Both the position numbers and the translations under genes were made by a program. A stretch of 64,000 nucleotides of DNA, from NCBI GenBank assembly GCA_002424045.1, contig DIPH01000015.1:70550-134549 (forward strand), given 5' to 3'. A model generated the notes under the pieces. That model did no database searches. It was not told where the DNA came from and worked only from the letters and a program-made list of their open reading frames with translations. This document shows positions 1,869-43,735 of this stretch, piece after piece. Numbering within the stretch: position 1 is the stretch's first letter; every line of letters begins with the position of its first letter. The DNA is from Firmicutes bacterium UBA5493. Its GTDB lineage: Bacteria; Bacillota; Limnochordia; Darwinibacteriales; Darwinibacteriaceae.

Positions 1869-1887
1869 AACATTGTCCCCCCCAAAC

Positions 1888-2769: not shown

Positions 2770-2849
2770 TTTACCACCTCGTAGCGTTCTATGACTTTTC
2801 GGGCCGTAATGAGGAGGAGACCCTCAGGGGGATCTCCTCCCTACTTTCC

Positions 2850-3974
2850 TTAGTACTTCTCGATAATTTTCCAGCCGTCGCCTTGGAATTCAGAAATGAG
2901 ACTGAACCTGGAAAGATTGTGTTTTTCGTCAGTTACGAGCTCGCCTTGTAAGCCAACAAATCCAGAGAAATTCTCTAGTTCTTCACGCATAGCTTGTTTG
3001 TCGAATCCTACCCGTTCGATAACCTCTTTGATTACATAGACGCCATCATAATAGGCTTGACCCGGGTCACTTGGTAAGCGGCCATAACGTGCTTGGTACT
3101 TCTCTACGAATTCTTGAACCACTGGGTTGGTATCTTCTGGTGTGAAGCTTTGAACAGCAATGACGCCAGTAGCAGCTTCTGGTGCTAAGTCAGTAAATGC
3201 TGGTACGCCCCAAGCAGTAAAGCCTACAACAGGAACATTAACGCCCATTTGGCGCAGTTGACGCACAAATACTGCGGCTTCGGATTCGTGGGTGAGACCC
3301 ATGATGGAGTCTACGCCAGCACGTACCATATTGAGGATCTGTCCAGTAGCATCCTTGTCGCCTTCGCGCATTTGCTCAACGGCAACTGGCTCAATGCCAT
3401 ACTCAGCAAATTTGTGGATAATAACGTCGCGAGCACTGGTGCAATAGTCTGTTGTTCCGTAGATAATACCAGGCTTCTTGGAGCCCAATACGTTGACTGC
3501 ATATTCAGCTTGATTCTCTACTCTAACTCTATCATCAGCTCTTAGACGGAATAGCCATGGATTGGCAAGGTTGTCGTAGCCAAGTGATGGAGAAGTAGCA
3601 CCGACCATCATCAATGTTTCGTTTTCTTGGGCAACTTGGTGTACGGCCAAAACAGAACTACTCATGTTTGGTCCAAACACTACGTCTACCTTATCATTTT
3701 CGATGACCCTTTTTACAACGTTGATGGCAGTGGCTGGAGAGGCCTCGTCGTCATAAACGACGACTTCAATCTTCTTGCCCTCAATGCCGCCTTCTGCATT
3801 GATCTCATCAACAGCTAACATAAAAGCTTCTTGGATATAATCGCCAAGAATAGAACCTGATCCAGTAAAGGGAGCAACCAAACCAAATTTAATAGTCTGA
3901 GCACCTACCACACTACCTGCCAATAATGTTACCATGAGAACCATTAGTGGAATAACCTTTAGATTTCTACGCAT
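2850..3974 (-). CDS. livK: Leu/Ile/Val-binding periplasmic substrate-binding protein (LivK/LivJ family)
   Basis: Type-I periplasmic binding fold sequence. Start trimmed to MRRNLKV, which has an AAAGGGG ribosome-binding site. Signal peptide ends ...VVGA|QT with no lipobox cysteine. Confidence 0.85.
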   Translation of the reverse strand: MRRNLKVIPLMVLMVTLLAGSVVGAQTIKFGLVAPFTGSGSILGDYIQEAFMLAVDEINAEGGIEGKKIEVVVYDDEASPATAINVVKRVIENDKVDVVFGPNMSSSVLAVHQVAQENETLMMVGATSPSLGYDNLANPWLFRLRADDRVRVENQAEYAVNVLGSKKPGIIYGTTDYCTSARDVIIHKFAEYGIEPVAVEQMREGDKDATGQILNMVRAGVDSIMGLTHESEAAVFVRQLRQMGVNVPVVGFTAWGVPAFTDLAPEAATGVIAVQSFTPEDTNPVVQEFVEKYQARYGRLPSDPGQAYYDGVYVIKEVIERVGFDKQAMREELENFSGFVGLQGELVTDEKHNLSRFSLISEFQGDGWKIIEKY

Positions 3975-4202
3975 CCTTTTACCCCTTTCGTTTTTCACCT
4001 CTAGACAAACCAACGTAAGTTCGCTACGTACACCTCCTTTCATCCGAGGTTTTACTTCTTCATGCTTCCACATATTAGGCAATTTCCTTACGCCTACTTT
4101 CGATTTATAAAACTTATTTCAACAAAACCAGACGTTATCCTTTGTTTAAAACGACAATTGAAGTGGTAATTCGTTGTTAATTTCTACAAAGGGGGGCACA
4201 AA

Positions 4203-4485: not shown

Positions 4486-5892
4486 CTACAACTCCACATC
4501 AAAATAATCCCGAGCATTGTTAAAACAGATATCTCTGACCATGCGTCCCATCAATTCCAAATCGTTGGGGGCCTCCCCAGTCTCCACCCAAGCGCCGAGT
4601 AAGTCACAGAGGATTCTGCGGAAATATTCGTGACGGGTGTAGGAGAGGAAGCTTCGGGAGTCCGTCAGCATGCCCACAAACCGGCTAAGCAAACCGATGT
4701 TAGCTAGAGCTACCATTTGACGAATCATCCCGTCTTTTTGATCGTTGAACCACCAACCCGAACCAAGCTGCATCTTGCCAGGAATCCCTCCACCCTGGAA
4801 AGAGCCTGCAATCGTGGCTAAAAGATCATTGTCGATTGGATTAAGAGAATACAAAATGGTCTTGGGCACGTGATTCGTCTCGTCAAGTTTGGACAAAAAG
4901 GCAACGAGAGCTCGACCATAAACTCGATCATCCATGGAGTCAAACCCGGTATCAGGCCCTAAGAGTCTGTGCATACGAGCACTGTTGTTTCTGATTGCAG
5001 AAAGGTGGAGTTGCATAACCCAGCCTCGTTCAGCATATTCCCTTCCTAAGAAAAGCAAGACTTGTGTCTTAAACATCTCCGTTTCTTCCTGGGTAAGCAT
5101 TTCTCTGCGTAAGGCTTTTTGCAGGGCAGAAGTCGCGTCCTCATCGGTTCCTTCCCCGTAAACAATGGGATCCAAACCATGATCGGATAGGCGACATCCC
5201 ATGCTATGGAAGAATTCAATCCTCTGCTTCAGTGCTTCCTTGAAGTCTGCGAATGTTCGAACCTCCCCACCAACGATTGCTTCAAGCTTCGTGACCCAAT
5301 CAACGAACCCAGGTTGATCAAGGTTAAAGCTCTTATCGGGTCGGAACGCGGGATACACCTTTACCGCAAAATCATTGTCCTCAGCCAAGGCTTGGTGGTA
5401 TCTTAGAGAATGGGCGGGGTCATCAGTTGTACACAGTCCCTTGACATTGGACCTTTCGATCAATGCTCTAGCCCTGAACTCTTCTTTCTGTAACAGACGA
5501 TTACACTCTTCCCAGATCTCCTCCGCCGTTTCTGGCGAGAGAAGTGCATCGATATCGAAGTACCTTCGCAATTCCAAATGAGTCCAATGATAGAGGGGGT
5601 TACCAATACATGCTGGCATCGTCTGGGCCCACTTCATAAACTTGTCTTTATCGCTGGCCTCACCAGTTATGTATTTCTCGTCGACTCCATTGGCCCTCAT
5701 GGCACGCCACTTATAATGGTCGCCGGCCAACCAAATCTCGGTTATATTTCTATACCTCTTGTTCTCAGCGATCTCCTTGGGGTTCAAATGACAGTGATAG
5801 TCAAAAATAGGCATGTCTTTCGCGTATTCATGATAGAGTCTTTCTGCTGTTGGGTTCGTTAATAAAAAGTTCTCATCCATAAACGATTTCAT
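4486..5892 (-). CDS. uxaC: Glucuronate isomerase (uronate isomerase)
   Basis: Start trimmed to MKSFMDENFLLTN (GGAGGGAG ribosome-binding site). Conserved UxaC N-terminus FLL..P.A..LYH...K..PI.DYHCHL. Confidence 0.9.
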   Translation of the reverse strand: MKSFMDENFLLTNPTAERLYHEYAKDMPIFDYHCHLNPKEIAENKRYRNITEIWLAGDHYKWRAMRANGVDEKYITGEASDKDKFMKWAQTMPACIGNPLYHWTHLELRRYFDIDALLSPETAEEIWEECNRLLQKEEFRARALIERSNVKGLCTTDDPAHSLRYHQALAEDNDFAVKVYPAFRPDKSFNLDQPGFVDWVTKLEAIVGGEVRTFADFKEALKQRIEFFHSMGCRLSDHGLDPIVYGEGTDEDATSALQKALRREMLTQEETEMFKTQVLLFLGREYAERGWVMQLHLSAIRNNSARMHRLLGPDTGFDSMDDRVYGRALVAFLSKLDETNHVPKTILYSLNPIDNDLLATIAGSFQGGGIPGKMQLGSGWWFNDQKDGMIRQMVALANIGLLSRFVGMLTDSRSFLSYTRHEYFRRILCDLLGAWVETGEAPNDLELMGRMVRDICFNNARDYFDVEL

Positions 5893-5983
5893 GCGTTTCT
5901 CCCTCCATATTGGATTTACCTGAGTGTCTGGCTCTACCAAAAAACCCGTACTCCCCATCACAAGGAGTACGGGTTGTGTCTAT

Positions 5984-7435
5984 TTAGGCATTATAGGTAG
6001 ATGCCGCGGTGCTTCCCCCTTGACCGGTCCAGTTCGTGTGGAAAAACTCTCCACGTGGTTTGTCTATCCGTTCGTAGGTATGGGCGCCAAAGTAATCCCT
6101 CTGGGCCTGCAGTAGATTTGCTGGAAGCCGGGAGTTGCGATAGCCGTCATAATAGCTGAGGGCTGCGCTAAAGGCCGGTACTGGAATGCCATGGAGCATG
6201 GCTGTGGCACACACTTTTCTCCAGCTCTCCTGGGCCTGGGTAATCTTCTCCTTGAAGATGGGATCCAAGAGCAAATTAGCGAGTTCTGGGTTTTGATCGA
6301 AAGCTTTTTTGATATCACCCAAGAAAGCCGAGCGAATAATACATCCTCCCCGCCACATGAGTGCGATGCCGCCGTAGTTTAGATCCCAACCATGACTCTC
6401 TGCTGCTGCACGCATCAAGGCATACCCTTGCGCGTAGGAGACAATCTTGGAGGCATAGAGAGCTTGCCTGACATCTTCGATAAAGGCCTTCTTGTCGCCT
6501 GTAAAGCTCGGTTTCGGACCTTCGAGAACCTTGGAAGCCGCCACCCTTTCTTCCTTGAGGGCAGACAGAAAGCGTGAGTAAACTGCTTCCCCGATTAAGG
6601 TTAGGGGAACACCTTCATCTAGAGACGAAATGGCTGTCCATTTTCCTGTTCCCTTTTGCCCAGCCGTGTCTAGAATTTTCTCCACCAAAGGCGAACCATC
6701 TTCATCTTTATAGGCTAGAATGTCCGCGGTAATCTCGATGAGGTAACTATCCAGGTCCCCTTGATTCCAGTCGCTAAAGATCTCATGCATCTCATCAGGT
6801 GTCATCCCTAAGAGATCCTTTAAGAGATGGTAGGCTTCACAGATGAGCTGCATATCGCCGTACTCGATACCGTTATGCACCATCTTGACAAAGTGTCCGG
6901 CACCATCCTGCCCCACCCACTCAGCGCAGGGACTACCATCTTCCACCTTCGCAGCTACTGCTTGGAAGATGGGCTTAATATGGGACCAGGCTTCAGGTGA
7001 GCCGCCTGGCATGAGACTTGGTCCAAGAAGAGCGCCTTCTTCACCGCCAGATACTCCCGTTCCCACGTAGAGCAAGCCTTTTTCCTCCACATACTTCGTC
7101 CGGCGAATGGTATCGGGGAAGTGCGAATTGCCTCCATCGATGATGATATCGCCTGCTTCGAGGAGAGGAATCAGCTGCTCAATCAGATTGTCTACGGGCT
7201 TTCCTGCCTTAACCATGAGCATCACTTTACGAGGGGTCTTCAGGCTCTGCACCAGTTCTTCCAAAGAATGTGCCCCAATGATATTTTTGCCTTTCGCTCT
7301 TCCCTCTACGAAGGACGTTACTTTTTCCACTGTGCGATTATAAACTGCAACGGAAAAGCCTTTGCTTTCCATGTTCATAACCAAGTTCTCGCCCATTACT
7401 GCCAAACCGACTAAACCGATATCTGCTTTTGACAT
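5984..7435 (-). CDS. gnd: 6-phosphogluconate dehydrogenase, decarboxylating
   Basis: 483 aa with [17 protein letters not shown]-binding Rossmann motif and typical Gnd/GntZ core and C-terminal tail. Confidence 0.9.
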
Positions 7436-7459: not shown

Positions 7460-8539
7460 CTATCTCTGCACCCTCGCATTACCTTCCCAAATACTCCATA
7501 CCTGCTGTTCATCGGCAGGTTGGGCATAGTCGGTCAAGAACGTAGTAGCCATGGCACCAGTGGCCCAGGCAAATTGAACCCATTTTTCCGAATCCCAGCC
7601 CCGTAAAATGCCATACAGCAGACCGCCTACAAAACCATCGCCCCCGCCAATGCGGTCCAATACAGTAATGGGACGGGGCTCAACCACATGCCACTTGTCC
7701 TCAGCTAACAAGATGGCTCCCCACAAATGGGAGTTTACGCTGACAACTTCACGCAGGGTATTGGCAAAAACAGAGGTGTTGGGAAACTGTTCTTTGACTC
7801 TTCCAATCATGTCCTTAAAGCCATGGATCTGTTCATTAATGTCTTGGCCGCCAGCTTCAGGGCCTTTGATGCCCAGACAGAGTTGATAGTCTTCTTCGTT
7901 GCCGATCAAAACATCGCTTAAGCTTGCGATTTCGGTAAAGATGTCCCGTAGTTCCTCTTCCCTATTCTCCCAGAATGTTGCCCGATAGTTTAAGTCAAAG
8001 GAAACTAGCGTTCCGTGCTTCTTAGCAGAGCGGGCCAACTCCAGACAAAAGGTACTGGTTTCAGGGGATAATGCGGCAATTAGACCCGAAAGGTGCATAA
8101 TCTGTACACCTTCTTCGCCAAAAATCCGCTCCATGTCAAAGTCCGCTACATTCAGTGTGCGACCTACTTCTCCTGCCCTATCATTTTGCACTCTAGGACC
8201 GCGTGTACCGTATCCGCTGTCTGCAATGTTGAATTGATGGCGATAACCCCATGGTCCGCCCTGAGGTACTTCAGGACCCTCATAGGTCATGTGCCTGCTG
8301 GCTAAGTTGTTCTTGATAAACTGGGCAATGGGACTGCCCTTTACAAAGGCAGTTAGCACCTTAACCGGTAAACCAAGATACGAAGAAATGCTGGCTACGT
8401 TCGTTTCTGCGCTGGTGACCTGCATTTGAAACATATCACTAGAATGCACAGGCTGTCCGTTCATTGGCGTAATGCGCACTCCCATGCTCGTGGGAACCAG
8501 CAAAGAATAAGTAAAATCCTTTCGCAATTGTAGACTCAT
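7460..8539 (-). CDS. PfkB-family sugar kinase, 2-dehydro-3-deoxygluconokinase (KdgK)-like
   Basis: 359 aa. KdgK-like N-terminus (LLVPTSMGVRITP), AETNVA motif, PfkB signature DRIGGGDGFVGG. True substrate (KDG versus gluconate-like) is unknown. Confidence 0.7.
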   Translation of the reverse strand: MSLQLRKDFTYSLLVPTSMGVRITPMNGQPVHSSDMFQMQVTSAETNVASISSYLGLPVKVLTAFVKGSPIAQFIKNNLASRHMTYEGPEVPQGGPWGYRHQFNIADSGYGTRGPRVQNDRAGEVGRTLNVADFDMERIFGEEGVQIMHLSGLIAALSPETSTFCLELARSAKKHGTLVSFDLNYRATFWENREEELRDIFTEIASLSDVLIGNEEDYQLCLGIKGPEAGGQDINEQIHGFKDMIGRVKEQFPNTSVFANTLREVVSVNSHLWGAILLAEDKWHVVEPRPITVLDRIGGGDGFVGGLLYGILRGWDSEKWVQFAWATGAMATTFLTDYAQPADEQQVWSIWEGNARVQR

Positions 8540-8557: not shown

Positions 8558-10096
8558 TTATTGTTTTATGCCAAGGGCTTTCAAATGGCGATTCATATGG
8601 CAGACGAGAAACTGCTCATACCGGCCCTCATGTTTTTTTAACACTTCGTAGATACCCTCTTTGAGCTTGGGATCTTGCAGCATGAACCCATAGGTGATGT
8701 GCAAGAGTTGGCGAGCATCATCTTGGTCAAGGAGTCCAGGTAGTTCCTGATCCTCGAGAGTATCAATTTCAGGGACTTTCGCGAGATCCATGCTCACGTG
8801 GTAATACTTGCGAGCGGCTTTAAGAGAGTCCAGAGCTTTTTGATGGAGTGCCCTATAAAGACAAGGATCTACATGTGCGATCACCCTCACGGCCTCCAGC
8901 CAATTGGTTCCGGCAGTTTTTACATGATACCCTGTAGCCCTTGCGTATTTACCGATAATGGGGAAGACGCTGAATTTATCGCTTCCAGAATGGATACTGA
9001 GTTTATATCCGAAGTGACTGGAAATGTCCGCGTGAACTGCAAACTCTTGCTCAAATTGTTCTAGATCGCCCATATAGTCAATGCCTTTCTCGAAGTGACC
9101 GTAAAAGCGCGGAGCAACGCTACAGACCTTGATACCCCTTTTTTTCAGCTCATTAGCGACAAAGAAGTGATCCTGGGGGGTTGTGGGTGTAGCCACTTCA
9201 TCGATACTGATCTCAAAGTCTATGGGCCGATCGAGTTTTGTAATTACTTGTTCATAGACCTTTTCCATGAAGTCCAGAGCTTGATGGTAGGTTAATGCCA
9301 TCCGTTGGTAATGCTCTGGATCCATATAAATGGTTGCACCATTTTGGAGCTCATAGCGTTGATCACAATAGAGTTCTTCAAATTCTTTTCGTTTTGCCTT
9401 TGGAAGCTGGTTATACTGGCTTAGAACCTCAGCCTCTGTTAGGTCTAGGATTTCATCATTGATGTGTTCCGAACAATCCAAAGTAATCATGCTGAATCCT
9501 AGCTCCAAAGCCATTAGAATATCTTCTATCTTTTTAAGATGGTCACCGTCTGCGCCATATCCTCCTTGATACCCTTCTTGGAAGACAGCCCAAGTAGCCG
9601 CATCAAGGACGTCTACATAGGTGCGGTTTGTTAGTTCCAATTCTCGCATAGATTGCTGGGCCAAAACCGGGCGCACTGGAGTGTCACGAATGGCCTTAAG
9701 ATGTCCGGGACTTGCAAGACCTAGACGATCTCCGAGCCCCATGGAAATCCCACTGGTGCCTAAAGCCTGAGGTGCAGTCCAAGTCAAAAGGGAACGTAAA
9801 ACCTTTGCATTCTTGCCATTTAAGGCAACCTGTTTCACCATAAAAACACCTACGTTAGAAACCTCGCCTTCGAATTGGTCAGTCCCCTCCCGATCTGAGA
9901 CAACGACCACTCGCCTTTCTCGAGCTTCCTTAACCATGAACAGAAGCTTATCATAGGCGAGTTGTAATGAGTCGGGGAAGACATCGCCCGATTCTTCTTC
10001 TAAGCGTTGTTTCAAGTCTTCAAGAGTCTCGGCTTGTTTCACCGTTTCGCGCCAACTTGTCACAACCATTCCTCCTCGTAGTGGTCTAAACTTCAC
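8558..10096 (-). CDS. Putative tagaturonate/fructuronate epimerase (UxaE-family-like) protein
   Basis: 512 aa with His/Asp/Glu-rich segments (SIHSGSDKFS). Operon context with uxaC/kdgK matches the Thermotoga-type uxaE arrangement. Assignment is by resemblance and context only. Confidence 0.4.
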   Translation of the reverse strand: MKFRPLRGGMVVTSWRETVKQAETLEDLKQRLEEESGDVFPDSLQLAYDKLLFMVKEARERRVVVVSDREGTDQFEGEVSNVGVFMVKQVALNGKNAKVLRSLLTWTAPQALGTSGISMGLGDRLGLASPGHLKAIRDTPVRPVLAQQSMRELELTNRTYVDVLDAATWAVFQEGYQGGYGADGDHLKKIEDILMALELGFSMITLDCSEHINDEILDLTEAEVLSQYNQLPKAKRKEFEELYCDQRYELQNGATIYMDPEHYQRMALTYHQALDFMEKVYEQVITKLDRPIDFEISIDEVATPTTPQDHFFVANELKKRGIKVCSVAPRFYGHFEKGIDYMGDLEQFEQEFAVHADISSHFGYKLSIHSGSDKFSVFPIIGKYARATGYHVKTAGTNWLEAVRVIAHVDPCLYRALHQKALDSLKAARKYYHVSMDLAKVPEIDTLEDQELPGLLDQDDARQLLHITYGFMLQDPKLKEGIYEVLKKHEGRYEQFLVCHMNRHLKALGIKQ

Positions 10097-10109: not shown

Positions 10110-10865
10110 CTAGAGAATTAACGAAGCCGAGTCTCGATCAAGATACAAAGTGACATCCGCGTGAGTTCGAAGGATCGATGCAGGGCACTTCGTGCTGATG
10201 GGCCCTTTCAGGGCATCATGCACAGCCTGGGCTTTTCGCCCATCAGGAACAACCGAAATAATCTTCTTACATCTCAAGATGGCTGGGACAGTGAGGGTCA
10301 GTGCCTCTTCAGGAACGTCCTCTAAAGCTTTGAACCAGCCCTCTCCCAATTGTTGCCGTCTGCAAGCATCATCTAACTGCACCACTTTTACCAGAAACTC
10401 ATCTTCAAAATCGGCCACCGGGGGATCGTTGAACGCAATATGACCATTTTCACCGATTCCGATAAAACCGAGCTTAATAGGGTTGGCTTCAATAAGTTGA
10501 GCATAACGCTCACATTCCCCTTCTACGTCTGCGGCGTCACCTTGGATGTACTCTACTTTATTGGGGCGGAACACCTTCTCGATGCGTTCTCTAATCCATA
10601 GCCTGAAACTTGCAGGATGCTCCGGGGACATCCCCTTATATTCGTCTAGATGGAAAGCTATAACCCTGCTCCAATCAATAGTCTGTGTCTTAAGACCATC
10701 CATAAAGGTAAACTGTGATGCCCCCGTCGAAAACAACAGATTTACCATGGGTTCCTGCACACTCTGCAAGTATGAGCTGGTGTCCTCTGCTGCAGCACGC
10801 CCCAACTCCTGCGCATTTTCGTACACTTTGACCTTAATGTTATTGAACTGCATTTCCCTAATCAT
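10110..10865 (-). CDS. Glucosamine-6-phosphate deaminase / 6-phosphogluconolactonase family protein (NagB-like)
   Basis: 251 aa with LFSTGAS, IGIGENGHIAFNDP motifs of the NagB/Pgl family. Ribosome-binding site AAGGAGG 9 nt upstream. Confidence 0.75.
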   Translation of the reverse strand: MIREMQFNNIKVKVYENAQELGRAAAEDTSSYLQSVQEPMVNLLFSTGASQFTFMDGLKTQTIDWSRVIAFHLDEYKGMSPEHPASFRLWIRERIEKVFRPNKVEYIQGDAADVEGECERYAQLIEANPIKLGFIGIGENGHIAFNDPPVADFEDEFLVKVVQLDDACRRQQLGEGWFKALEDVPEEALTLTVPAILRCKKIISVVPDGRKAQAVHDALKGPISTKCPASILRTHADVTLYLDRDSASLIL

Positions 10866-10869
10866 TGAG

Positions 10870-12153
10870 CTAAGCCTCCTTGTTACCTTTGGGGAAGTCC
10901 TTTTCCAAAGCCCAAAGACCTAGAGCTGGATTACTAATGTAAAAGACTTCTTCTCCGTTAACGATATTACGGCCTTCCTTGAGCTGGTCTAGCCTATACT
11001 GGCTGACAGCTTGGGCATAGGGCACGTAGTTGTAATTGACTCCTCGAATCTCCTCTTCCGTCAAATGCTCCACCGCATAGGTGATTTTGAAGCGGTTTTC
11101 CGAGGAACCATGAATTAAATGTGCTGCCACCGACAGATTCTTCCCCAGTTCCTCACTGGTTTTCACAAAGTCTAGAATCTCACGACTGGTCTTATAACCG
11201 AAAGCGCGAATCAAACGATCAATCTCTGGATCTTCGCCAAACATACGAACACCAGGAGCCAAAATGACCAACTCACCATCATCTGCAATGGCCATTCTTG
11301 TGCGATACACGGACTTATTGCCCAGCCAGGTGCTCCTAAATTCGTTGGGATCCAAGTAGACGACAACTTTCTTGAGAGGTTCAGAGAGCAAGTCCAAATT
11401 GCATACTTGACTCTTAGCTACAGCCTGGCTAAACGCCTCGCGCTCCTTGCCCAAGAATAAGCCCTGCAGTGCAGTGGCTTCGTCCCTTGTTTCAGTTACG
11501 GTAAGAACATAAGCCAAGGGCAAATCATGCAGGAAATGCTCTTCTGCATAATCAAACACCTTACGAACGGGGGAATAATCCCGACCCATCATTTTCTCCA
11601 TGCCGTAAACTGCTCCGAGAAAATGGGACTTGTCAATAATATCTTTACCACCGCACCCTACCACGATGTTCTTGGTGTAATTGGCCATCCCCACTACCTC
11701 ATGTGGTACGACTTGACCGATGGACAAGATGAGATCATACTGGCCTTCGAGAATTTCACTGTTGATATCCACAACAATGGAATAATCCACGAGGCCTTCA
11801 GAGACTTCCTTTACAAAACCGCCTGGCACAACGCCCACCGTTTTAACATCGGTGCGCCAGTTATGGTCTAGGTACACCTCAGGCGGTACATCTGCCCCAA
11901 AAATCCGCTGTTTTTCCTCCAAGGTCATGGGTACATGGGTTCCCAAGGCCGGCAAAATTCTTACCTCTGCAGGCTGCAACAAGTGGTGCAACATACTCGT
12001 GATTGGTCCGGCCATGCTATGTGCCCTGGTGCCGTCTGGAGGGATTAGCAACACTTTATCTAGGGGCTTTTCGTATGCACCCAGCCATGTGGCCAACTCC
12101 TTTTGGACGGTCTCTAAATCGATGGGACCGTCTGCCAAGAAACGACTTTCCAT
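10870..12153 (-). CDS. LarA-family (nickel-pincer-nucleotide-dependent) alpha-hydroxyacid racemase/epimerase homolog
   Basis: 427 aa with LLIPPDGTRAHS (D-x-TR motif), ALGTHVPMTLEEK (LarA ALGTHRPMT motif), VVPHE..G and conserved Lys region. Consistent with DUF2088/LarA N- and C-domains. Confidence 0.65.
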   Translation of the reverse strand: MESRFLADGPIDLETVQKELATWLGAYEKPLDKVLLIPPDGTRAHSMAGPITSMLHHLLQPAEVRILPALGTHVPMTLEEKQRIFGADVPPEVYLDHNWRTDVKTVGVVPGGFVKEVSEGLVDYSIVVDINSEILEGQYDLILSIGQVVPHEVVGMANYTKNIVVGCGGKDIIDKSHFLGAVYGMEKMMGRDYSPVRKVFDYAEEHFLHDLPLAYVLTVTETRDEATALQGLFLGKEREAFSQAVAKSQVCNLDLLSEPLKKVVVYLDPNEFRSTWLGNKSVYRTRMAIADDGELVILAPGVRMFGEDPEIDRLIRAFGYKTSREILDFVKTSEELGKNLSVAAHLIHGSSENRFKITYAVEHLTEEEIRGVNYNYVPYAQAVSQYRLDQLKEGRNIVNGEEVFYISNPALGLWALEKDFPKGNKEA

Positions 12154-12174: not shown

Positions 12175-12987
12175 CTATACTCCCGAAAACGCTGCAAATC
12201 CGCCATCCACAGGTACAACGATTCCGGTGACAAATCGGCTTGCATCCGATACGAGCCAAATAGCGGTACCCACTAGGTCAGAAGGTTCTCCAAAGCGGCC
12301 CATGGGTGTGTGCTCTAAGATTGTACGGCCCCGAGCTGTTAAATCACCTGTTTTCTCCTCGGTTAGCAAGAAGCGATTCTGCTTGGTCAAGAAGAAGCCT
12401 GGTGCCATTGCATTCACCCTTATATTTGCGGAATAGTGTTTGTTTAGATGGACCGCCAGCCACTGGGTGAAATTGCTTACTGCTGCTTTAGCACCGCCAT
12501 AACCTACAACATTGGTCAATGGCCGTATGGCTGCCATGGAGGAGATATTCAGAATCACTCCCTCTTTTTTCTCTGCGAGGATTTCGCCGAAAACTTGCGA
12601 AGGAAGCAAGGTGCCCATGAAGTTGAGTCGCACAACGTTATCCAGATCCTGTTCGGGTAAATCAAAAAAGGACAAATTCGGGCTTGTGGTTGCGGATGGG
12701 CTATTGCCCCCGACCCCATTCACCAGAATATCGATGGTACCATACTTGGCTAGAATCTCTTCCCGAGCTTGCAGGAGACTTTCCCGATCTAAAGCATCGA
12801 ATGGAATACTGACGGCGTCCCCCCTCGCTTCCTTAATTTCCGCAACCAGTTCATCCGCGGGGTTACGATCCAATACCGCAATTTTGGCCCCGGCTTTGGC
12901 TAGGCCGCGGGATAGTTCACTCCCCAAAATACCTGCTCCACCCGTAATTGCCACAACTTTACCACTCAAATCAAATAATCCTTGCAT
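12175..12987 (-). CDS. SDR-family D-mannonate/fructuronate oxidoreductase (UxuB/YjmF-like)
   Basis: 270 aa with TGGAGILG Rossmann motif and YGGAKAA catalytic Y-x3-K. Resembles the Bacillus SDR-type UxuB. Confidence 0.7.
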   Translation of the reverse strand: MQGLFDLSGKVVAITGGAGILGSELSRGLAKAGAKIAVLDRNPADELVAEIKEARGDAVSIPFDALDRESLLQAREEILAKYGTIDILVNGVGGNSPSATTSPNLSFFDLPEQDLDNVVRLNFMGTLLPSQVFGEILAEKKEGVILNISSMAAIRPLTNVVGYGGAKAAVSNFTQWLAVHLNKHYSANIRVNAMAPGFFLTKQNRFLLTEEKTGDLTARGRTILEHTPMGRFGEPSDLVGTAIWLVSDASRFVTGIVVPVDGGFAAFSGV

Positions 12988-13058: not shown

Positions 13059-13075
13059 AGTTGCGTGACGCAACT
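13059..13075. promoter_or_regulatory. Perfect palindrome AGTTGCGT-g-ACGCAACT, candidate operator upstream of the SDR-first sugar-acid operon
   Basis: 8-bp arms are perfect reverse complements around one central base. Lies between the ROK-gene terminator and the SDR start, about 70 nt upstream of the start codon. Confidence 0.45.
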
Positions 13076-13083
13076 TAGTCACC

Positions 13084-13109
13084 GAAAAAAGAGTGGTCTA
13101 GAACCACTT
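13084..13109 (-). terminator. Rho-independent terminator after ROK regulator gene
   Basis: AGTGGT-N6-ACCACT hairpin followed by U-tract on minus strand, immediately after the stop at 13114. Confidence 0.55.
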
Positions 13110-13113
13110 CAGC

Positions 13114-14349
13114 CTATACATGATCCCACCCATTGGATTTCGGTAGCTCAAAAATATCCTGCAATAGTAAGGTTGCCGCTCCAATTGTCACGGAGTCTTG
13201 CCCCAAACCCACTGGTTCTAACCTTAGGTGACTTTTTAGGGGCTGGAGCACCTGGATACCTACGGTTTCCCGAACCTTGGGTAATATATAATCCAGCACC
13301 GGAAACACATCTCCTCCGATTAAAACCTTCGCAGGATTGAGAATGTTTATGGTGTAGGACAGTGCCAAACCCAAGTGAGCGGCAACCTCTTCCCATAATC
13401 TAAGGGCTGCTGGGTCACGGGCAAACGTGGCCTGGCACAGCTTCTCGAAATTGAGCTGGTTGGGATCTCCTCCGGTAAATGCCATAAGGCTCTGGGCTTC
13501 ACCCTTCTTTAGCAGTTCCCTTCCGCGCTTCAATATCGCATCAATGGATGCAACCGTCTCTAAACAACCTAAATTACCACATTTGCAGCGGGGACCACCT
13601 GGAAGGACAGTAAGATGTCCGATTTCACCTGCACTATAATCCGTCCCAGGAAATAACCTACCGCCCAAGATCACACCTGATCCGATAGAAGAGCCAACTT
13701 TTACTACGAGGATATTTTCCACCGCTTGCCCATTACCAAACCACGATTCTCCAAGTGCCATGGCGTTGGCATTATTCTCCATGCGGACGGGTAAGTCATA
13801 CCTACTTTCAATGTTGACGGCCACCGGTTCATTACGCCACTCAATGGCCGGAGCGAAAACACTAAGACCTTGATGACTATTAACAATTCCATGCATAGCC
13901 ACGCCTATGCCCAAAACAGTAATTTCTCTCTCTTGGGCTCGCTCTAGCAACGAATCTATGACACCATAGACATCCGCCATCACAGCATCCCGGCTGGCAT
14001 CTCGGAGTGGTACTTCCATACGTTCTGTGATCTGGGCGTTAAAGTCGACCAAGACTCCTGCCACAAATGTTGATTCAATGGCGATTCCCACTACATGAAC
14101 GGCGCCGGCAACCAGACTTAACATCACGGGTCTACGACCAAGCCCACTGTCTCCTTCGCCACTCTCCTCCACGAATCCTTCTTCCAAAAGTGAAGCAACG
14201 ATACGAGTGATTGTGGACCGATGGAGTCCTGTCTGGCGCGCAATATCAGCCCGCGAGATTGATCCAGCCCGCATAATGTGACCTAGGACCAATCTGGGAC
14301 TAATCTCTTTTAAAATGGGGAGCTTCTCTCGAATATCCATAGCCATCAT
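13114..14349 (-). CDS. ROK-family transcriptional regulator (NagC/XylR-like) with N-terminal HTH
   Basis: 411 aa with N-terminal winged HTH and ROK sugar-kinase-like domain including the CxCGxxGC zinc motif (KCGNLGCLE). Confidence 0.85.
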   Translation of the reverse strand: MMAMDIREKLPILKEISPRLVLGHIMRAGSISRADIARQTGLHRSTITRIVASLLEEGFVEESGEGDSGLGRRPVMLSLVAGAVHVVGIAIESTFVAGVLVDFNAQITERMEVPLRDASRDAVMADVYGVIDSLLERAQEREITVLGIGVAMHGIVNSHQGLSVFAPAIEWRNEPVAVNIESRYDLPVRMENNANAMALGESWFGNGQAVENILVVKVGSSIGSGVILGGRLFPGTDYSAGEIGHLTVLPGGPRCKCGNLGCLETVASIDAILKRGRELLKKGEAQSLMAFTGGDPNQLNFEKLCQATFARDPAALRLWEEVAAHLGLALSYTINILNPAKVLIGGDVFPVLDYILPKVRETVGIQVLQPLKSHLRLEPVGLGQDSVTIGAATLLLQDIFELPKSNGWDHV

Positions 14350-14366: not shown

Positions 14367-15647
14367 CTACTTGATCATATGGTTGATAACAGTAACATCC
14401 GTCTTCTTCATGCCTTCAGAGGCAATGTTCCCGATTACACTGATGGTCTCCTCCACATTGGACTTGACAATACCGTCCCCATCCAAAAACTTCAGAGCGG
14501 TAAAGGACATGGTCAGCCCCATAATGGCTGCATCTACTGACGATGCAATTTTTGCTGCACACGACGGTTTGGCTCCATCACAAAGAATGCCCGAAACATT
14601 AGCTAATGTGTTTGTGATGGTATCGCAAACCTCTTCATAATCTCCTCCGAGCATGTAGGTGATGGCAGCACCTGAACCGCAGGCTGCACTTACCGCGCCA
14701 CAATAGGCCGAAAGGCGACCAATACCGGTTTTCTGATGAATGGCCACGAGGTTACTTACACACAGAGCCCTAAACAACTTTTCCTCAGACAATTCATAGT
14801 ATCTGGCATAGACGATAACGGGGATAGAGGCAGCAATGCCCTGGTTTCCGCTTCCAGAGTTGATCACAACAGGCAATTGGCAACCGTCCATGCGGGCATC
14901 GGAAGCGGCAGCAGCTGTAGCACGGGCAACATTCCCGACGGCATTTCCGAAGTTCTCCAGGAGGACCTTGCCCACACTAGCGCCGTAGTCCTCTGTTAAG
15001 CCTGCTTCTGCAATGGCGGTATTATGCTCAACCTGGGGCCTGAGAATGGGCTCAACATCCTCGAGTTTCACAGAATGAGCAAAGTCCAGAATATCTCTGA
15101 CATTCAAGAGCGAACGATCGGTAAGTGTTTCACCACCCTCGGCACTTACTCCTTTATCCAAGAGGATGTTGCCGTCCTTTTCGATCCGCACAAAGCTCGT
15201 GTGGGTATGCAAAATCTCAACTAAGGCGTGGCTTTGCTTCGACGTCCCCTCCACAATAAGATGGAGTTTAGCTGGAGTTTTATCCAAGAGTTCCACCACG
15301 CAGCACGAAGCATCAGCGATGCGCTCCTTCGTGTTTTCAATGTCTTTTTCCTTAACAGAACTTAGGACCGCCAAACCACGATCTGCTTCTCCACCGAAAA
15401 TGCCCAGCCATACCGCGGTCGCAATTCCTTTTAGACCGTTAGAGTGGGGAATGGTCACCGACTTGGTGTTTTTGATCAAGTTTCCACTCATCCTGACCTC
15501 AATTTTCTCAGGAACCTCACCTAGAACGTCCCGAAGCTTAGCACCGGCTAAAGCCAAACAAGCAGGCTCGGTGCAACCTACAGCAGGTACCAATTCTTCC
15601 TCCAAGATAGCAATATAATTCTCGTATTTCACCTTATCAATACACAT
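14367..15647 (-). CDS. UPF0597/YhaM(CyuA)-family serine-dehydratase-like Fe-S protein (L-cysteine desulfidase homolog)
   Basis: 426 aa with AVGCTEPACLALAGA, INSGSGNQGIAASIPVIV, LCDGAKPSCAAKIAS. These align closely with E. coli YhaM motifs. Confidence 0.7.
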   Translation of the reverse strand: MCIDKVKYENYIAILEEELVPAVGCTEPACLALAGAKLRDVLGEVPEKIEVRMSGNLIKNTKSVTIPHSNGLKGIATAVWLGIFGGEADRGLAVLSSVKEKDIENTKERIADASCCVVELLDKTPAKLHLIVEGTSKQSHALVEILHTHTSFVRIEKDGNILLDKGVSAEGGETLTDRSLLNVRDILDFAHSVKLEDVEPILRPQVEHNTAIAEAGLTEDYGASVGKVLLENFGNAVGNVARATAAAASDARMDGCQLPVVINSGSGNQGIAASIPVIVYARYYELSEEKLFRALCVSNLVAIHQKTGIGRLSAYCGAVSAACGSGAAITYMLGGDYEEVCDTITNTLANVSGILCDGAKPSCAAKIASSVDAAIMGLTMSFTALKFLDGDGIVKSNVEETISVIGNIASEGMKKTDVTVINHMIK

Positions 15648-15670: not shown

Positions 15671-16528
15671 TTAACCTTTAACCGCACCGGCCACTTGACC
15701 GGATTTCTGATATGTCTGCATGACTAGGTAGAGAATAATACTGGGGACAATGACCAAGGTAGTGCCCGCCAGTACCACTTGCCATGGCGTCGATAATCCG
15801 TCGCTGACTGGGAGCATTGAAACCGAAACCATCAGCGTATACTTAGAACTATCGCGCAAATACAGAAGGGGCCAGAAGTAGTCGTTCCAACGGGCAATAA
15901 CCGTGATAGATGCCCAGGAGGCCAATGCTGGTTTGGCAATGGGCACAACAATTCTTCTATAGATGCCAAATTCACTGCATCCGTCAATACGAGCCGAATC
16001 AATGATGGCGTCGGGTATATCCAACATATATTGCCTCAAATAGAAAATACCAATGGCAGTGGCCATCCGCGGAATGATCAAGGACCATAGACTGTTAACC
16101 AAGCCTACTCTGCGCATGATCACAAACATGGGAACCGCACCAACTTCTGGCGAAATCATCATGGTAGCAATGACAAAATAGAAGAGAGCATTGCGCCCGG
16201 GAAAATCGAATTTAGCAAAGGCATATCCTGCCAGGGAACAGAAAAACAACGTGGTCACCGTCCCCACGATGGAGGTAAATGCACTGTTTAAGAGATTTGT
16301 CCAGATTGGAATGAGTTCAAAAAGCCGCTTGTAGTTGGCCAGTGTTGGACTTTGAATACGCAGGGCATTAAACCCAGTAATACTCTCTCCCACTTCTTTA
16401 AAGGAAATAATGGACATCCAGAGTACTGGGAAGAGACAAAAGGCAACAATAATGCACAGCAATCCATGGACAACAAGTTTACGAAGCACTTCCTTTGTCT
16501 TGTAGCTCATAACAAACCCCCCCGTCAC
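15671..16528 (-). CDS. Carbohydrate ABC transporter permease (CUT1 family, MalG-like)
   Basis: 285 aa with EAA-like loop (IDGCSEFGIYRRIVVPIAKPAL). GTG start overlaps the upstream stop (TAGTG); an alternative ATG lies 18 nt downstream. Confidence 0.85.
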   Translation of the reverse strand: MTGGFVMSYKTKEVLRKLVVHGLLCIIVAFCLFPVLWMSIISFKEVGESITGFNALRIQSPTLANYKRLFELIPIWTNLLNSAFTSIVGTVTTLFFCSLAGYAFAKFDFPGRNALFYFVIATMMISPEVGAVPMFVIMRRVGLVNSLWSLIIPRMATAIGIFYLRQYMLDIPDAIIDSARIDGCSEFGIYRRIVVPIAKPALASWASITVIARWNDYFWPLLYLRDSSKYTLMVSVSMLPVSDGLSTPWQVVLAGTTLVIVPSIILYLVMQTYQKSGQVAGAVKG

Positions 16529-17397
16529 TAGATTTCACCCGTCCTGCGTCGTACCATGAACTGAATGAGCGAAATACCAAGCAGAATTACAATCAACACT
16601 ACACCTAACGCAGAACCGTAACCCAATTTGAAGTTGGTGAAAGCGGACGTATACATCAGTTCAAACAACGATGTATTTGATGTTCCAGGCCCAGATAATA
16701 TGTGGGACTCATTGAAAAGTCGCCACGCGTCTACGGTGATGGTGATAAAGCAGAAGAACAGAATATTATTTAGCAGTGGCAGGGTGATACGGAGAAACTG
16801 TTGCCAGCCCGATGCTCCATCCACTGTAGCTGCTTCGTAATACTCATCGGAGATATTCAATAGACCAGATAGGATAATCATTGTGAACCAAGGCGTTAGG
16901 CGCCAGATAAACAAGATCACTACTGGAATCCAGGCATAGGCACTTGTGGTCAACCAGGGAATACGACTTCCTCCCAAGGACACAATGACCTCATTCACCA
17001 GGCCTGCATGTTCTTCAAACAACATTCGGAAAATTAACCCCATGGCCACCGAAGCACAGACATACGGAAGAAATGTGGACGTTTTGAAGAACTGTTTCGA
17101 GCGTAACACTTTGCTATTGAGCAAAACAGCGATGAGTAAAGACAATCCCATGATGCCAATGGCTCCCACGATCCAGTAGCGAAATGTATTCTGGATAGCA
17201 TTGGAAAACATGTAGTCATTCATCATGAGCTGGTAATTTCTCCACCCAATCCACCTCGGAGGCCTTAGCCCGTTCCATTCAGTAAAGCTGTAATACACAG
17301 TGGCAATGGTGGGAACAAGCTGAAATACCAGGAAGAGAATGAGATAAGGTGCGATGAATAGATAGGGATGGCGATGCTTTCTCAACGTCTCCCACAT
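16528..17397 (-). CDS. Carbohydrate ABC transporter permease (CUT1 family, MalF/UgpA-like)
   Basis: 289 aa polytopic protein with ABC permease signature. Confidence 0.85.
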   Translation of the reverse strand: MWETLRKHRHPYLFIAPYLILFLVFQLVPTIATVYYSFTEWNGLRPPRWIGWRNYQLMMNDYMFSNAIQNTFRYWIVGAIGIMGLSLLIAVLLNSKVLRSKQFFKTSTFLPYVCASVAMGLIFRMLFEEHAGLVNEVIVSLGGSRIPWLTTSAYAWIPVVILFIWRLTPWFTMIILSGLLNISDEYYEAATVDGASGWQQFLRITLPLLNNILFFCFITITVDAWRLFNESHILSGPGTSNTSLFELMYTSAFTNFKLGYGSALGVVLIVILLGISLIQFMVRRRTGEI

Positions 17398-17510
17398 GAA
17401 AATCCTCCTTTTCCGCTATTAACCGGCAACGCCCGGAAAACGGGCCTCACCTCGGGCGAGATGTCCTGGCGCACCCATTAGTACGGAGCGCGCCAGGGCC
17501 AGAGTACTCC

Positions 17511-18839
17511 TTAGGGCATCTCTGCCCGGCCAATACGGAGTTTGAGTTCTTTATCCATATTAGCAATTGCCTGTACCATTGTTTGCTCACCGGCCACATA
17601 TTTCTCAATCTCAGCACTGATGATGCCGTCAGCTTCATTGTCCTGTGGCGTTACTGTCATGTTAGGTGAAGGATTGAACAGACCATCAGCCTCGGCTTTT
17701 CGGAACGATTGACCGCCGTAGAAAGACGAGGGTTCTTGCCAGAATGGATCCGACAGCACTTCAAGGGAAACTGGGTTGGAGTAGGGACCATTCAGTCTGT
17801 CCATCTCGTTTACCCATGCGTTGCGCTCTTCAGTATTGGTCGAGAAGTCATACCACATATCCAAGAACAGATCCACGTAGGTGTCGTCTCCCTTGTTTAC
17901 TACGCAGAAGTACGTAGAAACAGGGGCACCGCCGGTGCCTACTTCTTCAAAGACAGGCGCACCCATCACTCGCCAATCACCAACAGTGGCTGTCAGGTTC
18001 CTGCGCAAGAATTCATCCCAGAATGCACCGATATAGAATGTAGCAATTTTGCCTTGATCCGTTGCTTCATAAAGTGGCGGCTGCATCATGGTTGTTCTGT
18101 AGAGAAGCCCCTCGCTGTGAAGCTGATCCAAGAATCCAAGGGCCAGCTTTGTACCTTCGTCTTCGCCGATGACCACATTCCCATTTTCATCCCAGATTCT
18201 AGCATTGGCTTGAGGCATCAAACCGCGACGACCCCAGTAACGCCAGGTATAGGTGGTGGGATCAATATAAGATAGATAGACTTCACCATTGCTGCGTTCT
18301 TTTAGGAGACGTCCTGCTTCAAGATATCCGTCAAAGGTGCCCATCATAGCGGGATCTACGTCATACTCTTCGAAAATCGCCGCATTGTAGAATAACACTT
18401 GGGGACGAACAGCGTCAGGCAGAGCCCAAACACGTCCATCAATGGTGGCATCGAGTACTGCACCGTCCACGAACTGATCTGCGATTGGTGTCCAATAATC
18501 AGTCATGTCTAACAGTAATCCAGCATCAACCAAGTTCATGATGCCTACTGCATCAAGCATAATCACATCTGGCATATCTTTGTAAGCGCCAGCGAGATTA
18601 TCCATGGCGATCTTCTGAACGCCAGCGTGCATGGTTTCGATCTGAACTGTCTCAACATCCACATTAGGAGCAAAGCGATGGATGGAAGGTTGGTAGAATA
18701 GTTCCCGGAAATGAGGTTGTCCAGTAGAGTAAATGAGAATCTTTCCATCTGGATAAGTGTCTTGAGCCATCACAGGAAAAACGCTCATAACCAACGAAAC
18801 GACGACAAGCAACACTAAGGACATTGATTTTCTGTACAT
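17511..18839 (-). CDS. Extracellular solute-binding protein, family 1 (sugar ABC transporter substrate-binding protein)
   Basis: 442 aa. Signal peptide cleaved ...PVMA|QD without lipobox. SBP_bac_1-like. Confidence 0.85.
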   Translation of the reverse strand: MYRKSMSLVLLVVVSLVMSVFPVMAQDTYPDGKILIYSTGQPHFRELFYQPSIHRFAPNVDVETVQIETMHAGVQKIAMDNLAGAYKDMPDVIMLDAVGIMNLVDAGLLLDMTDYWTPIADQFVDGAVLDATIDGRVWALPDAVRPQVLFYNAAIFEEYDVDPAMMGTFDGYLEAGRLLKERSNGEVYLSYIDPTTYTWRYWGRRGLMPQANARIWDENGNVVIGEDEGTKLALGFLDQLHSEGLLYRTTMMQPPLYEATDQGKIATFYIGAFWDEFLRRNLTATVGDWRVMGAPVFEEVGTGGAPVSTYFCVVNKGDDTYVDLFLDMWYDFSTNTEERNAWVNEMDRLNGPYSNPVSLEVLSDPFWQEPSSFYGGQSFRKAEADGLFNPSPNMTVTPQDNEADGIISAEIEKYVAGEQTMVQAIANMDKELKLRIGRAEMP

Positions 18840-18974: not shown

Positions 18975-19619
18975 TTAGCGCAAGGAATCAATGTCAACTT
19001 CCAATACTCGTTTGGCATAGGCTAAATCTCTGTTTTTGCATGCTTCAACGAACTCAAAATGGCGCGCACCTGAGGAGCGCTCCTTCATGAGAGGATTGTC
19101 GCGGTCATAGCCACTAAAGTGTTGGGTCGTAGCCCGAGTCAACTTACGTAATATCTGTTCCAAAAGCCCATAGAGAACCTGATTTTGGGCGTAAGAAGCC
19201 AGCTGCAGGTGGAAAGTCATGTTGCGTTTCCAGTTGTCCATGGGTGCCCCATGAATTTCAGCATCTTTGCGATTGGCATGGTTCAATCTTTCCAACTCGG
19301 CGATGACTTCATCGGTCAGCATGTGGAAGCTTCTTTCCAACATATAGATTTCTAAGGCCTGGCGTGCTTCGGCTAATTCCCTTATTTGCTTGGGAGTGAT
19401 CTGCACTACCATATAGCCCAGCCGCGGTATAGAACGCAAAATATCCTCATTACAAAGTTCAATGAGCGCTTCCCGAACCGGCGATTTGCTTACCCCGAAC
19501 TCGTGAACTAACCTGCTCTCCGTAATAATATCCTCCGAGCTGTATTTTCCGTTAATCACGTCGCTATACACTTGATCATAGACTTTTCTTGTTAATGGTT
19601 TTGAGTTTTGTAGTGCCAT
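18975..19619 (-). CDS. GntR-family transcriptional regulator (FadR/FCD C-terminal domain)
   Basis: 214 aa. N-terminal GntR winged HTH (LVHEFGVSKSPVREAL) plus FCD-like C-terminus. Confidence 0.85.
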   Translation of the reverse strand: MALQNSKPLTRKVYDQVYSDVINGKYSSEDIITESRLVHEFGVSKSPVREALIELCNEDILRSIPRLGYMVVQITPKQIRELAEARQALEIYMLERSFHMLTDEVIAELERLNHANRKDAEIHGAPMDNWKRNMTFHLQLASYAQNQVLYGLLEQILRKLTRATTQHFSGYDRDNPLMKERSSGARHFEFVEACKNRDLAYAKRVLEVDIDSLR

Positions 19620-19662: not shown

Positions 19663-20622
19663 TTAGAGATCACCCGCAGCATCCATCACTGCCCGGAGAT
19701 GCGAGACTTCAATGTTTTCCGGCAGAGTGCAATCGGCACCGATAATGAACCTCTCCCGGCCGACCTCAGCAACGATCTCAGCTGCCGTGCGGGCAATTTC
19801 CTCTGTGGGGCCATCAACGAGCACACCACTACGGTCGTCAAAGCCGCCCAAGAGCGTTTTTCCAGGAAACAATCTTCTTCCATCGGCTAATGTATAGTCA
19901 CTTTCGTGGATCGCCCAGTTGATCACGTCAGCGTTGATCGGAGAGTACATGGGTATGTTAGTACCGCCTTTACAGATATGCAGGATACTGATTGCACCTT
20001 GCTCATTGATATGATCAACCACTGCAGCATCTAAAGGCCTGACATACTTCTCAAACAAGCTTTGTTCGAAACGATGCGCTTCGCCACCTAGAGCGGCATA
20101 AAAAATCCCGTCAGCACCAGCTTCGACCAACTTGGTGCTGAGCTCACACAGCGTTTTTACCACGCTTTTTAACGCCGTGGCCACTGTCTCAGGGTCCTCC
20201 CTAAGATGCCTGCTCACTAAGTTATCTGGGTTTGCAAAATAGCCTGGTTCTTCCGTTGCATGATAAGCTGAAACAAGAACTCCATGTACCGTAGCGAACA
20301 ACGGTAGGTCCTGTGGCAACTCAGCACGAAGCATTCGAAACTCTGTGAGGTATTCTTCATATCCAGTGCGTTCCCATGGCAACGCCTTTAGATCCTTCCA
20401 ATCGGATATGTTAGAAATTGGTTTTTCCATGCGATAAAAATGCTCGTTCATGACTTTGAGTATATCTGGTTTAACCTTCTGGTAATAATCCAAATGGGCC
20501 TCTACTGCGGCACGGCCCGTCCAGTTATCGGAACTAAAATGATGCCAAAAGCCACACAGAACTCCGTCTATGCTTTCTCCACGAAGTGTCGCGTGCAGGC
20601 GTTCCCGTCGATCCACAATCAT
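19663..20622 (-). CDS. Uroporphyrinogen decarboxylase (URO-D)-like family protein of unknown function
   Basis: 319 aa with URO-D/MtaA-like TIM-barrel features. First gene of the operon with the GntR regulator and sugar ABC transporter; no haem-biosynthesis neighbours. Confidence 0.6.
   Translation of the reverse strand: MIVDRRERLHATLRGESIDGVLCGFWHHFSSDNWTGRAAVEAHLDYYQKVKPDILKVMNEHFYRMEKPISNISDWKDLKALPWERTGYEEYLTEFRMLRAELPQDLPLFATVHGVLVSAYHATEEPGYFANPDNLVSRHLREDPETVATALKSVVKTLCELSTKLVEAGADGIFYAALGGEAHRFEQSLFEKYVRPLDAAVVDHINEQGAISILHICKGGTNIPMYSPINADVINWAIHESDYTLADGRRLFPGKTLLGGFDDRSGVLVDGPTEEIARTAAEIVAEVGRERFIIGADCTLPENIEVSHLRAVMDAAGDL

Positions 20623-43535: not shown

Positions 43536-43735
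<200 letters not shown>

Follow-up and report, generated by a model that had tools for sequence, protein, structure and literature searches.

A LarA homolog of group 18, a probable NPN-dependent D-mannonate/D-gluconate 2-epimerase, in a conserved hexuronate operon

Within the LarA superfamily, groups 20 and 19 of LarA homologs (LarAH) are proven D-gluconate 2-epimerases, and their members GntE2 and GntE1 epimerise D-mannonate with the nickel-pincer cofactor (NPN) (PMC7583248). Group 18, which carries the label "G2E3 / putative hexonate epimerase" in the supplement of Desguin et al. 2020, corresponds to the curated family NF052594, named "nickel-dependent putative hexonate epimerase" (PMC7583248). 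Frequent neighbours of group-18 genes encode an SDR (36%), 6-phosphogluconate dehydrogenase (32%), a ribokinase-family kinase (16%) and glucuronate isomerase (12%), and frequent proximity to LarE and LarB was recorded for group 19, not for group 18 (PMC7583248). Regarding the catalytic machinery, in LarA H108 and H174 form the catalytic histidine pair, K184 tethers NPN, H200 ligates nickel, and D72, R75 and K298 hold the cofactor and the substrate. A 2024 JBC study (PMC11770544) used four positions, occupied by E, V, A and H, to recognise GntE enzymes; it also assigned LarAH15 of Phytophthora nicotianae to the GntEs, with a narrow substrate spectrum, a KM of 9.4 mM for D-mannonate and a kcat of 111 per second. 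For GntEs as a whole, reported KM values for D-mannonate lie at 9–120 mM, high enough to leave room for another physiological substrate. In the literature on the family (PMC7583248, PMC11770544), we found no assayed bacterial group-18 enzyme.

The protein studied here is encoded within a stretch of DNA of 64 kb, hereafter the window, by an open reading frame at positions 10870–12153 of the minus strand, which starts with an ATG preceded at a distance of 8 nt by the RBS-like sequence AGAGGGTGG and comprises 427 aa. The LarA hallmarks listed in the initial annotation were all present, namely D-x-TR (P38-P-D40-G-T42-R43), ALGTHVPMT (A69-L-G-T-H73-V-P-M-T77) and PH...K (P150-H151-E-V...K161), and they were invariant in 33 family members; H177 and K280 were found in addition. 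Pfam assigned a Lar_N domain to the protein. Rather than placing it in a DUF2088-like family devoid of catalytic residues, the profile search returned a match to NF052594 of 608.5 bits (E = 4.8e-183), above the equivalog cut-off of 500 bits, and the second-best LarA-family model reached only 51 bits.

At the sequence level, identity to three published group-18 proteins amounted to 52, 50 and 43%, with the value of 52% corresponding to ACP_2683 of A. capsulatum, and identity to proteins of groups 19 and 20 was 26–28%. Furthermore, the LarA homolog carries the group-18 signature D R H H E V K H ... W L N K S A A L I H S, in which 19 of the 20 published positions agreed with ACP_2683, while the ninth (V) could not be mapped. 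The published elements of this signature comprise the loop E-V, W-L-x-N-K of helix 11 and S-x-A-A-x-L-I-H-x-S of helix 14, all of them found in the protein, which departs from groups 19 and 20 at N279, L346, I347 and the H348-G-S-S motif. An identical sequence is deposited in GenBank as HBN95201.1, "MAG TPA: D-mannonate epimerase [Firmicutes bacterium]", and the identical protein together with the same operon was present in two MAGs (GCA_003504695.1 and GCA_002424175.1) and in several metagenomes. The idea that the protein might represent a new specificity was consequently abandoned, given that group 18 had already been listed (PMC7583248) and curated as NF052594 and that the identical protein had already been named. 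The protein falls within the GntE branch of the LarA superfamily, and both its curation and its annotation predate this analysis.

With regard to catalytic competence, D40, R43, H73, H151, K161, H177 and K280 were invariant in an alignment of 33 relatives that are 56–88% identical. These residues have D72, R75, H108, H174, K184, H200 and K298 as their counterparts in LarA, and in the alignment with GntE2 (numbering as in PMC7583248) D40, R43, H151, K161, H177 and K280 corresponded to D38, R41, H154, K164, H180 and K287. A careful inspection of the alignment for lost NPN-tethering lysine or histidine residues revealed none, as K161 and H177 are both kept. At the four GntE-defining positions, the LarA homolog has E152, V153, A344 and H345. 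The structural model proposed at the outset was built with AlphaFold2 (pLDDT 91.4, pTM 0.89), and its best match in the PDB, obtained with Foldseek, was GntE2 (4NAR; E = 3e-27, TM 0.77), with LarA, Mar2 and the I. pallida racemase next in rank. No structure from outside the LarA family occurred among the first 19 PDB matches (E values from 3e-27 to 2e-11). The protein thus has the two-domain fold of LarA along with the NPN-binding and catalytic residues that characterise the LarA superfamily.

The genomic surroundings initially described, with the gene located between a NagB-like gene and an SDR gene, were corroborated by profile matches. The SDR gene (12175–12987, minus strand) encodes an SDR-type fructuronate reductase / D-mannonate oxidoreductase (NF006132, 358.7 bits; cut-off, 281), whose product, D-mannonate, would be the substrate for the LarA homolog. 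The NagB-like protein (10110–10865, minus strand; Pfam Glucosamine_iso) belongs to the glucosamine-6-P deaminase / 6-P-gluconolactonase superfamily; NagB models gave 137 bits, far under their cut-offs, and its nearest PDB entry was B. subtilis NagB (2BKV, E = 7.7e-34). This gene was present in none of the 80 related loci described below, yet it was found on all contigs of the same species. Further along the minus strand are the genes for UxaE, a tagaturonate/fructuronate epimerase (8558–10096; Pfam UxaE, 626 bits), whose start is placed approximately 9 codons later by gene callers on public contigs, resulting in 501–503 aa, for a PfkB-family, KdgK-like sugar-acid kinase (7460–8539; Pfam PfkB), whose nearest PDB entry was the T. 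maritima KDG kinase 2AFB (E = 5.6e-32), and for Gnd, the NADP-dependent decarboxylating 6-phosphogluconate dehydrogenase at the exit of the module (5984–7435; TIGR00873, 784 bits). Since the kinase is KdgK-like and not a known gluconate kinase, its substrate was assigned from context only, and this context suggests that within the module it acts as the 6-kinase for gluconate (or mannonate).

The genes for the SDR, the LarA homolog, the NagB-like protein, UxaE, the PfkB kinase and Gnd follow one another at distances of 4–24 nt, and the block that they form is flanked by two terminator-like hairpins recognised in the sequence. One of them (13092–13108, minus strand) lies 3′ of a gene for a ROK-family regulator and indicates where the SDR-LarAH-...-gnd transcription unit begins, and the other (5943–5975, minus strand; 15-bp stem followed by a T-run) is found directly 3′ of gnd. 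Next comes uxaC (4486–5961, minus strand; Pfam UxaC, 734 bits; NF002794, 667 bits), which encodes the glucuronate/galacturonate isomerase at the entry of the pathway. The hairpin 3′ of gnd overlaps the start of the long uxaC open reading frame, public gene calls give a protein of 468 aa, and the true start is probably near 5892. Between the hairpin at 13092–13108 and the SDR gene, we identified a perfect 7-3-7 palindrome, AGTTGCG-TCA-CGCAACT (13059–13075), as a candidate operator; it occurs once in the window, against a chance expectation of 0.11 matches at up to 3 mismatches.

The ROK-family regulator (13114–14349, minus strand; Pfam ROK and HTH) has an N-terminal HTH of the NagC/Mlc-like type, with a match to the NagC model of 238 bits, below its cut-off. 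The genes of an ABC sugar transporter (15671–18839, minus strand), composed of a solute-binding protein (Pfam SBP_bac_1) and two permeases (two BPD_transp_1 matches), form the upstream part of the same gene string as the LarA homolog. A GntR/FCD-family regulator (18975–19619, minus strand; Pfam GntR and FCD) belongs to the same family as UxaR of T. maritima, which was described in PMC3750489.

In order to place this arrangement in a wider context, neighbouring genes were clustered without prior labels in 80 loci, with one genome per species. The species of the window itself was not part of this sample, and its best relative therein had 72% identity. The loci derived from Clostridia, Ignavibacteria, Bacteroidales, Planctomycetota, Elusimicrobiota, Spirochaetes and Acidobacteriota, along with one Asgard MAG. 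Gnd was the most conserved neighbour of the LarA-homolog family (55 of the 80 loci), followed by the SDR (32/80), which was frequently encoded immediately upstream of the LarA homolog, the PfkB kinase (28/80), UxaE (15/80) and UxaC (13/80), and UxaE>SDR>PfkB>LarAH>Gnd was a frequent co-directional array. The PfkB orthologs shared a median identity of 68%, and they co-occurred with Gnd in 27 of 28 loci and with KDPG aldolase in 5 of 28, and the PfkB kinase was missing from most loci that had an FGGY kinase. All four published types of group-18 neighbours are represented in the operon of the window, which is therefore typical for group 18 and not the unusual context it had been taken for. A reading of the PfkB kinase as a plain KdgK of the classical pathway was set aside as the main interpretation on the basis of these co-occurrences (KDPG aldolase in 5/28 vs. 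Gnd in 27/28), and it is also countered by the fact that neither UxuA nor Eda was found in the window.

The second distinctive trait that had been attributed to the locus was its lack of visible cofactor-maturation genes. The absence of larB, larC and larE from the 64 kb was borne out, since Pfam scans of the 56 non-overlapping open reading frames of at least 90 aa in the window detected none of them, and tblastn with LarB, LarC and LarE seeds from locus L065 (Saccharicrinis sp.) gave a best E value of 0.22 against the window. None was located within 10 kb past either window edge in the longer public contigs either (84 kb in total). As a distinguishing feature, however, this absence did not hold, because larB-larC-larE were found within 10 kb of the LarA homolog in only 1 of the 80 related loci. 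This result, with which the published neighbour table agrees, indicates that missing larBCE genes nearby are normal for group 18. The single exception was L065, whose LarA homolog (661 bits on NF052594) is encoded at most 7 kb from larB, larC and larE, and whose LarB, LarC and LarE exceed their respective NCBIfam cut-offs. A motif screen of 1119 neighbouring open reading frames, which employed regular expressions for FSGISGDM of LarC and the PP-loop SGGxDS, also retrieved L065 as the sole genuine locus, and the PP-loop matches in loci L034 and L050 were not LarE according to tblastn. The L065 arrangement is a direct link of group 18 to NPN at the family level. With regard to the organism itself, two further intact LarA paralogs were detected approximately 3–5 kb left of the window on the same contig, one LarAH10-like (512 bits) and one malate-racemase-like (350 bits), adjoining IlvD, an isopropylmalate-synthase-like gene and butyrate kinase. 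With three LarA-type enzymes encoded within 20 kb, it is very likely that the organism synthesises NPN.

The family assignment, the conserved residues, the fold and the recurrent gene context, all computed here, are consistent with the sugar-acid C2 epimerase that had been guessed for this protein, whose cofactor and catalytic residues are intact. We consider it likely that the LarA homolog is a group-18 C2 epimerase of the GntE type that depends on NPN and catalyses the D-mannonate/D-gluconate interconversion in a shunt from hexuronates to ribulose-5-phosphate, with the substrate and the sequence of phosphorylation and epimerisation being what we infer. In such a shunt, UxaC would convert glucuronate or galacturonate into fructuronate or tagaturonate, UxaE would turn tagaturonate into fructuronate where needed, and the SDR would reduce fructuronate to D-mannonate. 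The LarA homolog would then invert C2 to yield D-gluconate, which the PfkB kinase would phosphorylate to 6-phosphogluconate, and Gnd would release ribulose-5-phosphate, CO2 and NADPH. The route would be redox-neutral, as pointed out by Valk et al. for a route of this kind (PMC6978723), and would go around UxuA/KdgK/KdgA.

By analogy with LarA and GntE2, NPN would be tethered to K161, with its nickel ligated by H177. Either H73 or H151 would take the proton of the C2 hydroxyl as the hydride at C2 is transferred to C4 of the pyridinium ring, generating a bound 2-keto-gluconate intermediate, and the hydride would then be returned to the opposite face. D40, R43 and K280 are predicted to hold the cofactor and the carboxylate, and E152/V153 together with A344/H345 to shape the polyol pocket. 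The cofactor itself would be supplied by larB, larE and larC encoded elsewhere in the genome, where we infer their presence.

A different order of events was reported for Lactobacillus suebicus, in whose extracts a mannonate kinase is followed by a 6-phosphomannonate 2-epimerase, with no genes assigned (Valk et al., PMC6978723). Transferred to the present operon, the PfkB protein would act as a D-mannonate 6-kinase and the LarA homolog as a 6-phospho-D-mannonate/6-phospho-D-gluconate 2-epimerase. This would fit with the lack of direct conversion of mannonate to gluconate in those extracts (PMC6978723), with a module kinase that is KdgK-like and not a canonical GntK, with the common gene order PfkB>LarAH>Gnd, and with the millimolar KM of characterised GntEs for free mannonate; moreover, basic residues that are invariant in group 18 and absent from groups 19 and 20 (R100, R286, and R284 in place of K) could bind phosphate. 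Nevertheless, GntE2, GntE1 and LarAH15 all use unphosphorylated D-mannonate, the specificity residues of the LarA homolog are identical to those of proven GntEs, and LarAH15, apparently of the group-18 type, is narrow-spectrum and reaches its kcat of 111 per second. Overall, we regard phosphorylation ahead of epimerisation as unlikely. We are similarly doubtful that group-18 LarA homologs and KdgK-like PfkB kinases are the missing genes of the L. suebicus mannonate kinase/6-phosphomannonate 2-epimerase route, although, if this were true, 6-phospho-D-mannonate would be the first phosphorylated substrate of an NPN enzyme.

The preferred reading, D-mannonate/D-gluconate epimerisation, was also weighed against other sugar acids, such as D-altronate/D-allonate, L-idonate/L-gulonate or an aldarate, e.g., D-glucarate/D-mannarate. 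Both NCBIfam and Desguin et al. 2020 commit themselves only to a "hexonate", the authors who determined a KM of 120 mM for GntE1 (group 19) proposed uronic or aldaric acids as its true substrates (PMC7583248), and in some loci of the family the SDR and the PfkB kinase are replaced by a D-2-hydroxyacid dehydrogenase and an FGGY kinase. Such a substrate seems improbable for this operon, as the presence of Gnd in 55/80 loci determines that the downstream product is (6-phospho)gluconate, the SDR lies above the cut-off of a D-mannonate oxidoreductase model, and UxaE channels tagaturonate away from altronate. Still more remote is the idea of an inactive or cofactor-less relic in an organism devoid of larBCE. 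It could draw on the absence of these genes from the window and from 10 kb on either side, but this distance is the rule for group 18 (nearby in 1/80 loci), none of the seven catalytic and cofactor residues varies, the operon around the gene is tight and conserved, two further LarA paralogs are intact on the same contig, and LarA homologs were found together with the NPN pathway in a published genome survey. We therefore give it hardly any credence.

Regarding its wider implications, the family, the predicted reaction, the gene context and the annotation of the exact protein were already public. The value of the present analysis is confirmatory, in that 80 loci across many phyla show a very stable module of SDR, LarA homolog, PfkB kinase and Gnd. 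This result supports a redox-neutral shunt from hexuronates to the pentose-phosphate pathway as a widespread alternative to UxuA-KdgK-KdgA. The shunt, through which plant uronic acids would enter the pentose-phosphate pathway, is of interest for the engineering of pectin utilisation. Our literature search retrieved no paper that ties the nickel-pincer cofactor to galacturonate.

Among the systems described previously, GntE2 of Thermotoga maritima (TM0442, group 20; PDB 4NAR) is the best structural match of the LarA homolog (TM 0.77) and shares its catalytic and NPN residues, although both proteins are only 24–26% identical. They differ in the loop, which is E-V here and E-S in GntE2, and at N279 and H348, which correspond to G286 and N355, respectively. 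The T. maritima gnd-uxaRED-gntEK operon (PMC3750489) follows the same logic, with gnd, uxaE, an SDR reductase, an epimerase and a kinase; the partner kinase is PfkB/KdgK-like in the window, in contrast with gntK in T. maritima. As a side note, Valk et al. give the T. maritima gene as TM0042, whereas the dataset of Desguin et al. lists GntE2 as TM0442.

LarA of Lactiplantibacillus plantarum (5HUQ) has the same fold (TM 0.69) and the same D/R/H/H/K/H/K residues at approximately 15% identity. Its bulky hydrophobic residues F175, F176 and W358 are replaced by E, V and A in the LarA homolog, in keeping with a polyol substrate, and, unlike LarA, the homolog has no adjacent larBCE or nickel transporter operon.

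LarAH15, an eukaryotic protein, has the same E, V, A and H pocket residues as the LarA homolog and probably belongs to the same subgroup. Its cloning primer encodes M-A-T-L-L-F-A-E-G, which agrees with the beginning of the LarA domain in P. infestans PITG_09435 (MTLLFAEGSKTAEL), a protein listed in group 18 (PMC7583248). On the strength of eight residues and a shared genus, epimerisation of D-mannonate has thus very probably already been demonstrated for an enzyme of the group-18 type.

Finally, when compared with group 18 (NF052594) in general, the LarA homolog agrees in both residue signature and neighbours, i.e., the SDR, Gnd, the ribokinase-family kinase and UxaC. Nothing substantive differs, and the particularities of the present locus are the insertion of the NagB-like gene and a longer gene string that includes the ABC transporter and the ROK regulator.

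In the intergenic region between the terminator of the ROK regulator gene and the start of the SDR gene, a perfect palindrome, AGTTGCG-TCA-CGCAACT (13059-13075), was found. It occurs once in the window and, judged from its sequence, represents a putative operator of the operon encoding the LarA homolog. At the other end of the operon, 3' of gnd, a strong terminator-like hairpin with a 15-bp stem (5943-5975, minus strand) extends into the beginning of uxaC if its longest open reading frame is taken (4486-5961, minus strand; GTG start at 5961). Since public gene calls also place the uxaC start about 23 codons further downstream, uxaC probably constitutes a separate or attenuated unit.

The minus-strand gene string that includes the operon is headed by genes for a URO-D/MtaA-like protein (19663-20622, minus strand) and a class-I mannose-6-phosphate-isomerase-like cupin protein (20841-21947, minus strand), both scoring well below curated cut-offs. 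A gene for a 426-aa protein (14367-15647, minus strand) separates the ROK regulator gene from those of the sugar ABC permeases; the sole domain of this protein is serine-dehydratase-alpha (PF03313), no NCBIfam equivalog matched it, and the 80 related loci do not contain it.

The NagB-like gene (10110-10865, minus strand), inserted between the LarA homolog and uxaE, scored far below the NagB cut-offs. This insertion is restricted to the present lineage, being absent from all 80 related loci yet present in all same-species contigs. A GH20 hexosaminidase is encoded directly to the right of the window (L089:10870-12798, on a longer public contig), and therefore the substrate handled by this locus might combine uronate with hexosamine.

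To the left, two more LarA paralogs were located on the same contig, about 3-5 kb from window position 1 (L087:13202-15782, in a longer public contig): one malate-racemase-like (424 aa, 350 bits) and one LarAH10-like (426 aa, 512 bits, slightly below the cut-off of 540). The pair is flanked on one side by a dihydroxy-acid dehydratase gene (IlvD, 687 bits) and on the other by genes for an isopropylmalate-synthase-like protein and butyrate kinase, and a branched-chain amino-acid ABC transporter (127-4082) adjoins the cluster. This neighbourhood may be a cluster for 2-hydroxyacids/branched-chain acids in which both paralogs act as NPN racemases. Elsewhere in the window, an FMN riboswitch (43536-43660, plus strand, 121 bits) directly precedes the gene for an ABC-type solute-binding protein (43792-45063), which suggests that the latter is a riboflavin uptake component.

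With regard to the related loci, a variant order, D-2-hydroxyacid dehydrogenase, FGGY (GlpK-like) kinase, LarA homolog and Gnd, was observed in L026, L055 (from a Hermodarchaeota MAG), L058 and L078, where the dehydrogenase and FGGY kinase substitute for SDR and PfkB. The two kinase types are nearly mutually exclusive, with both occurring in one of eight.
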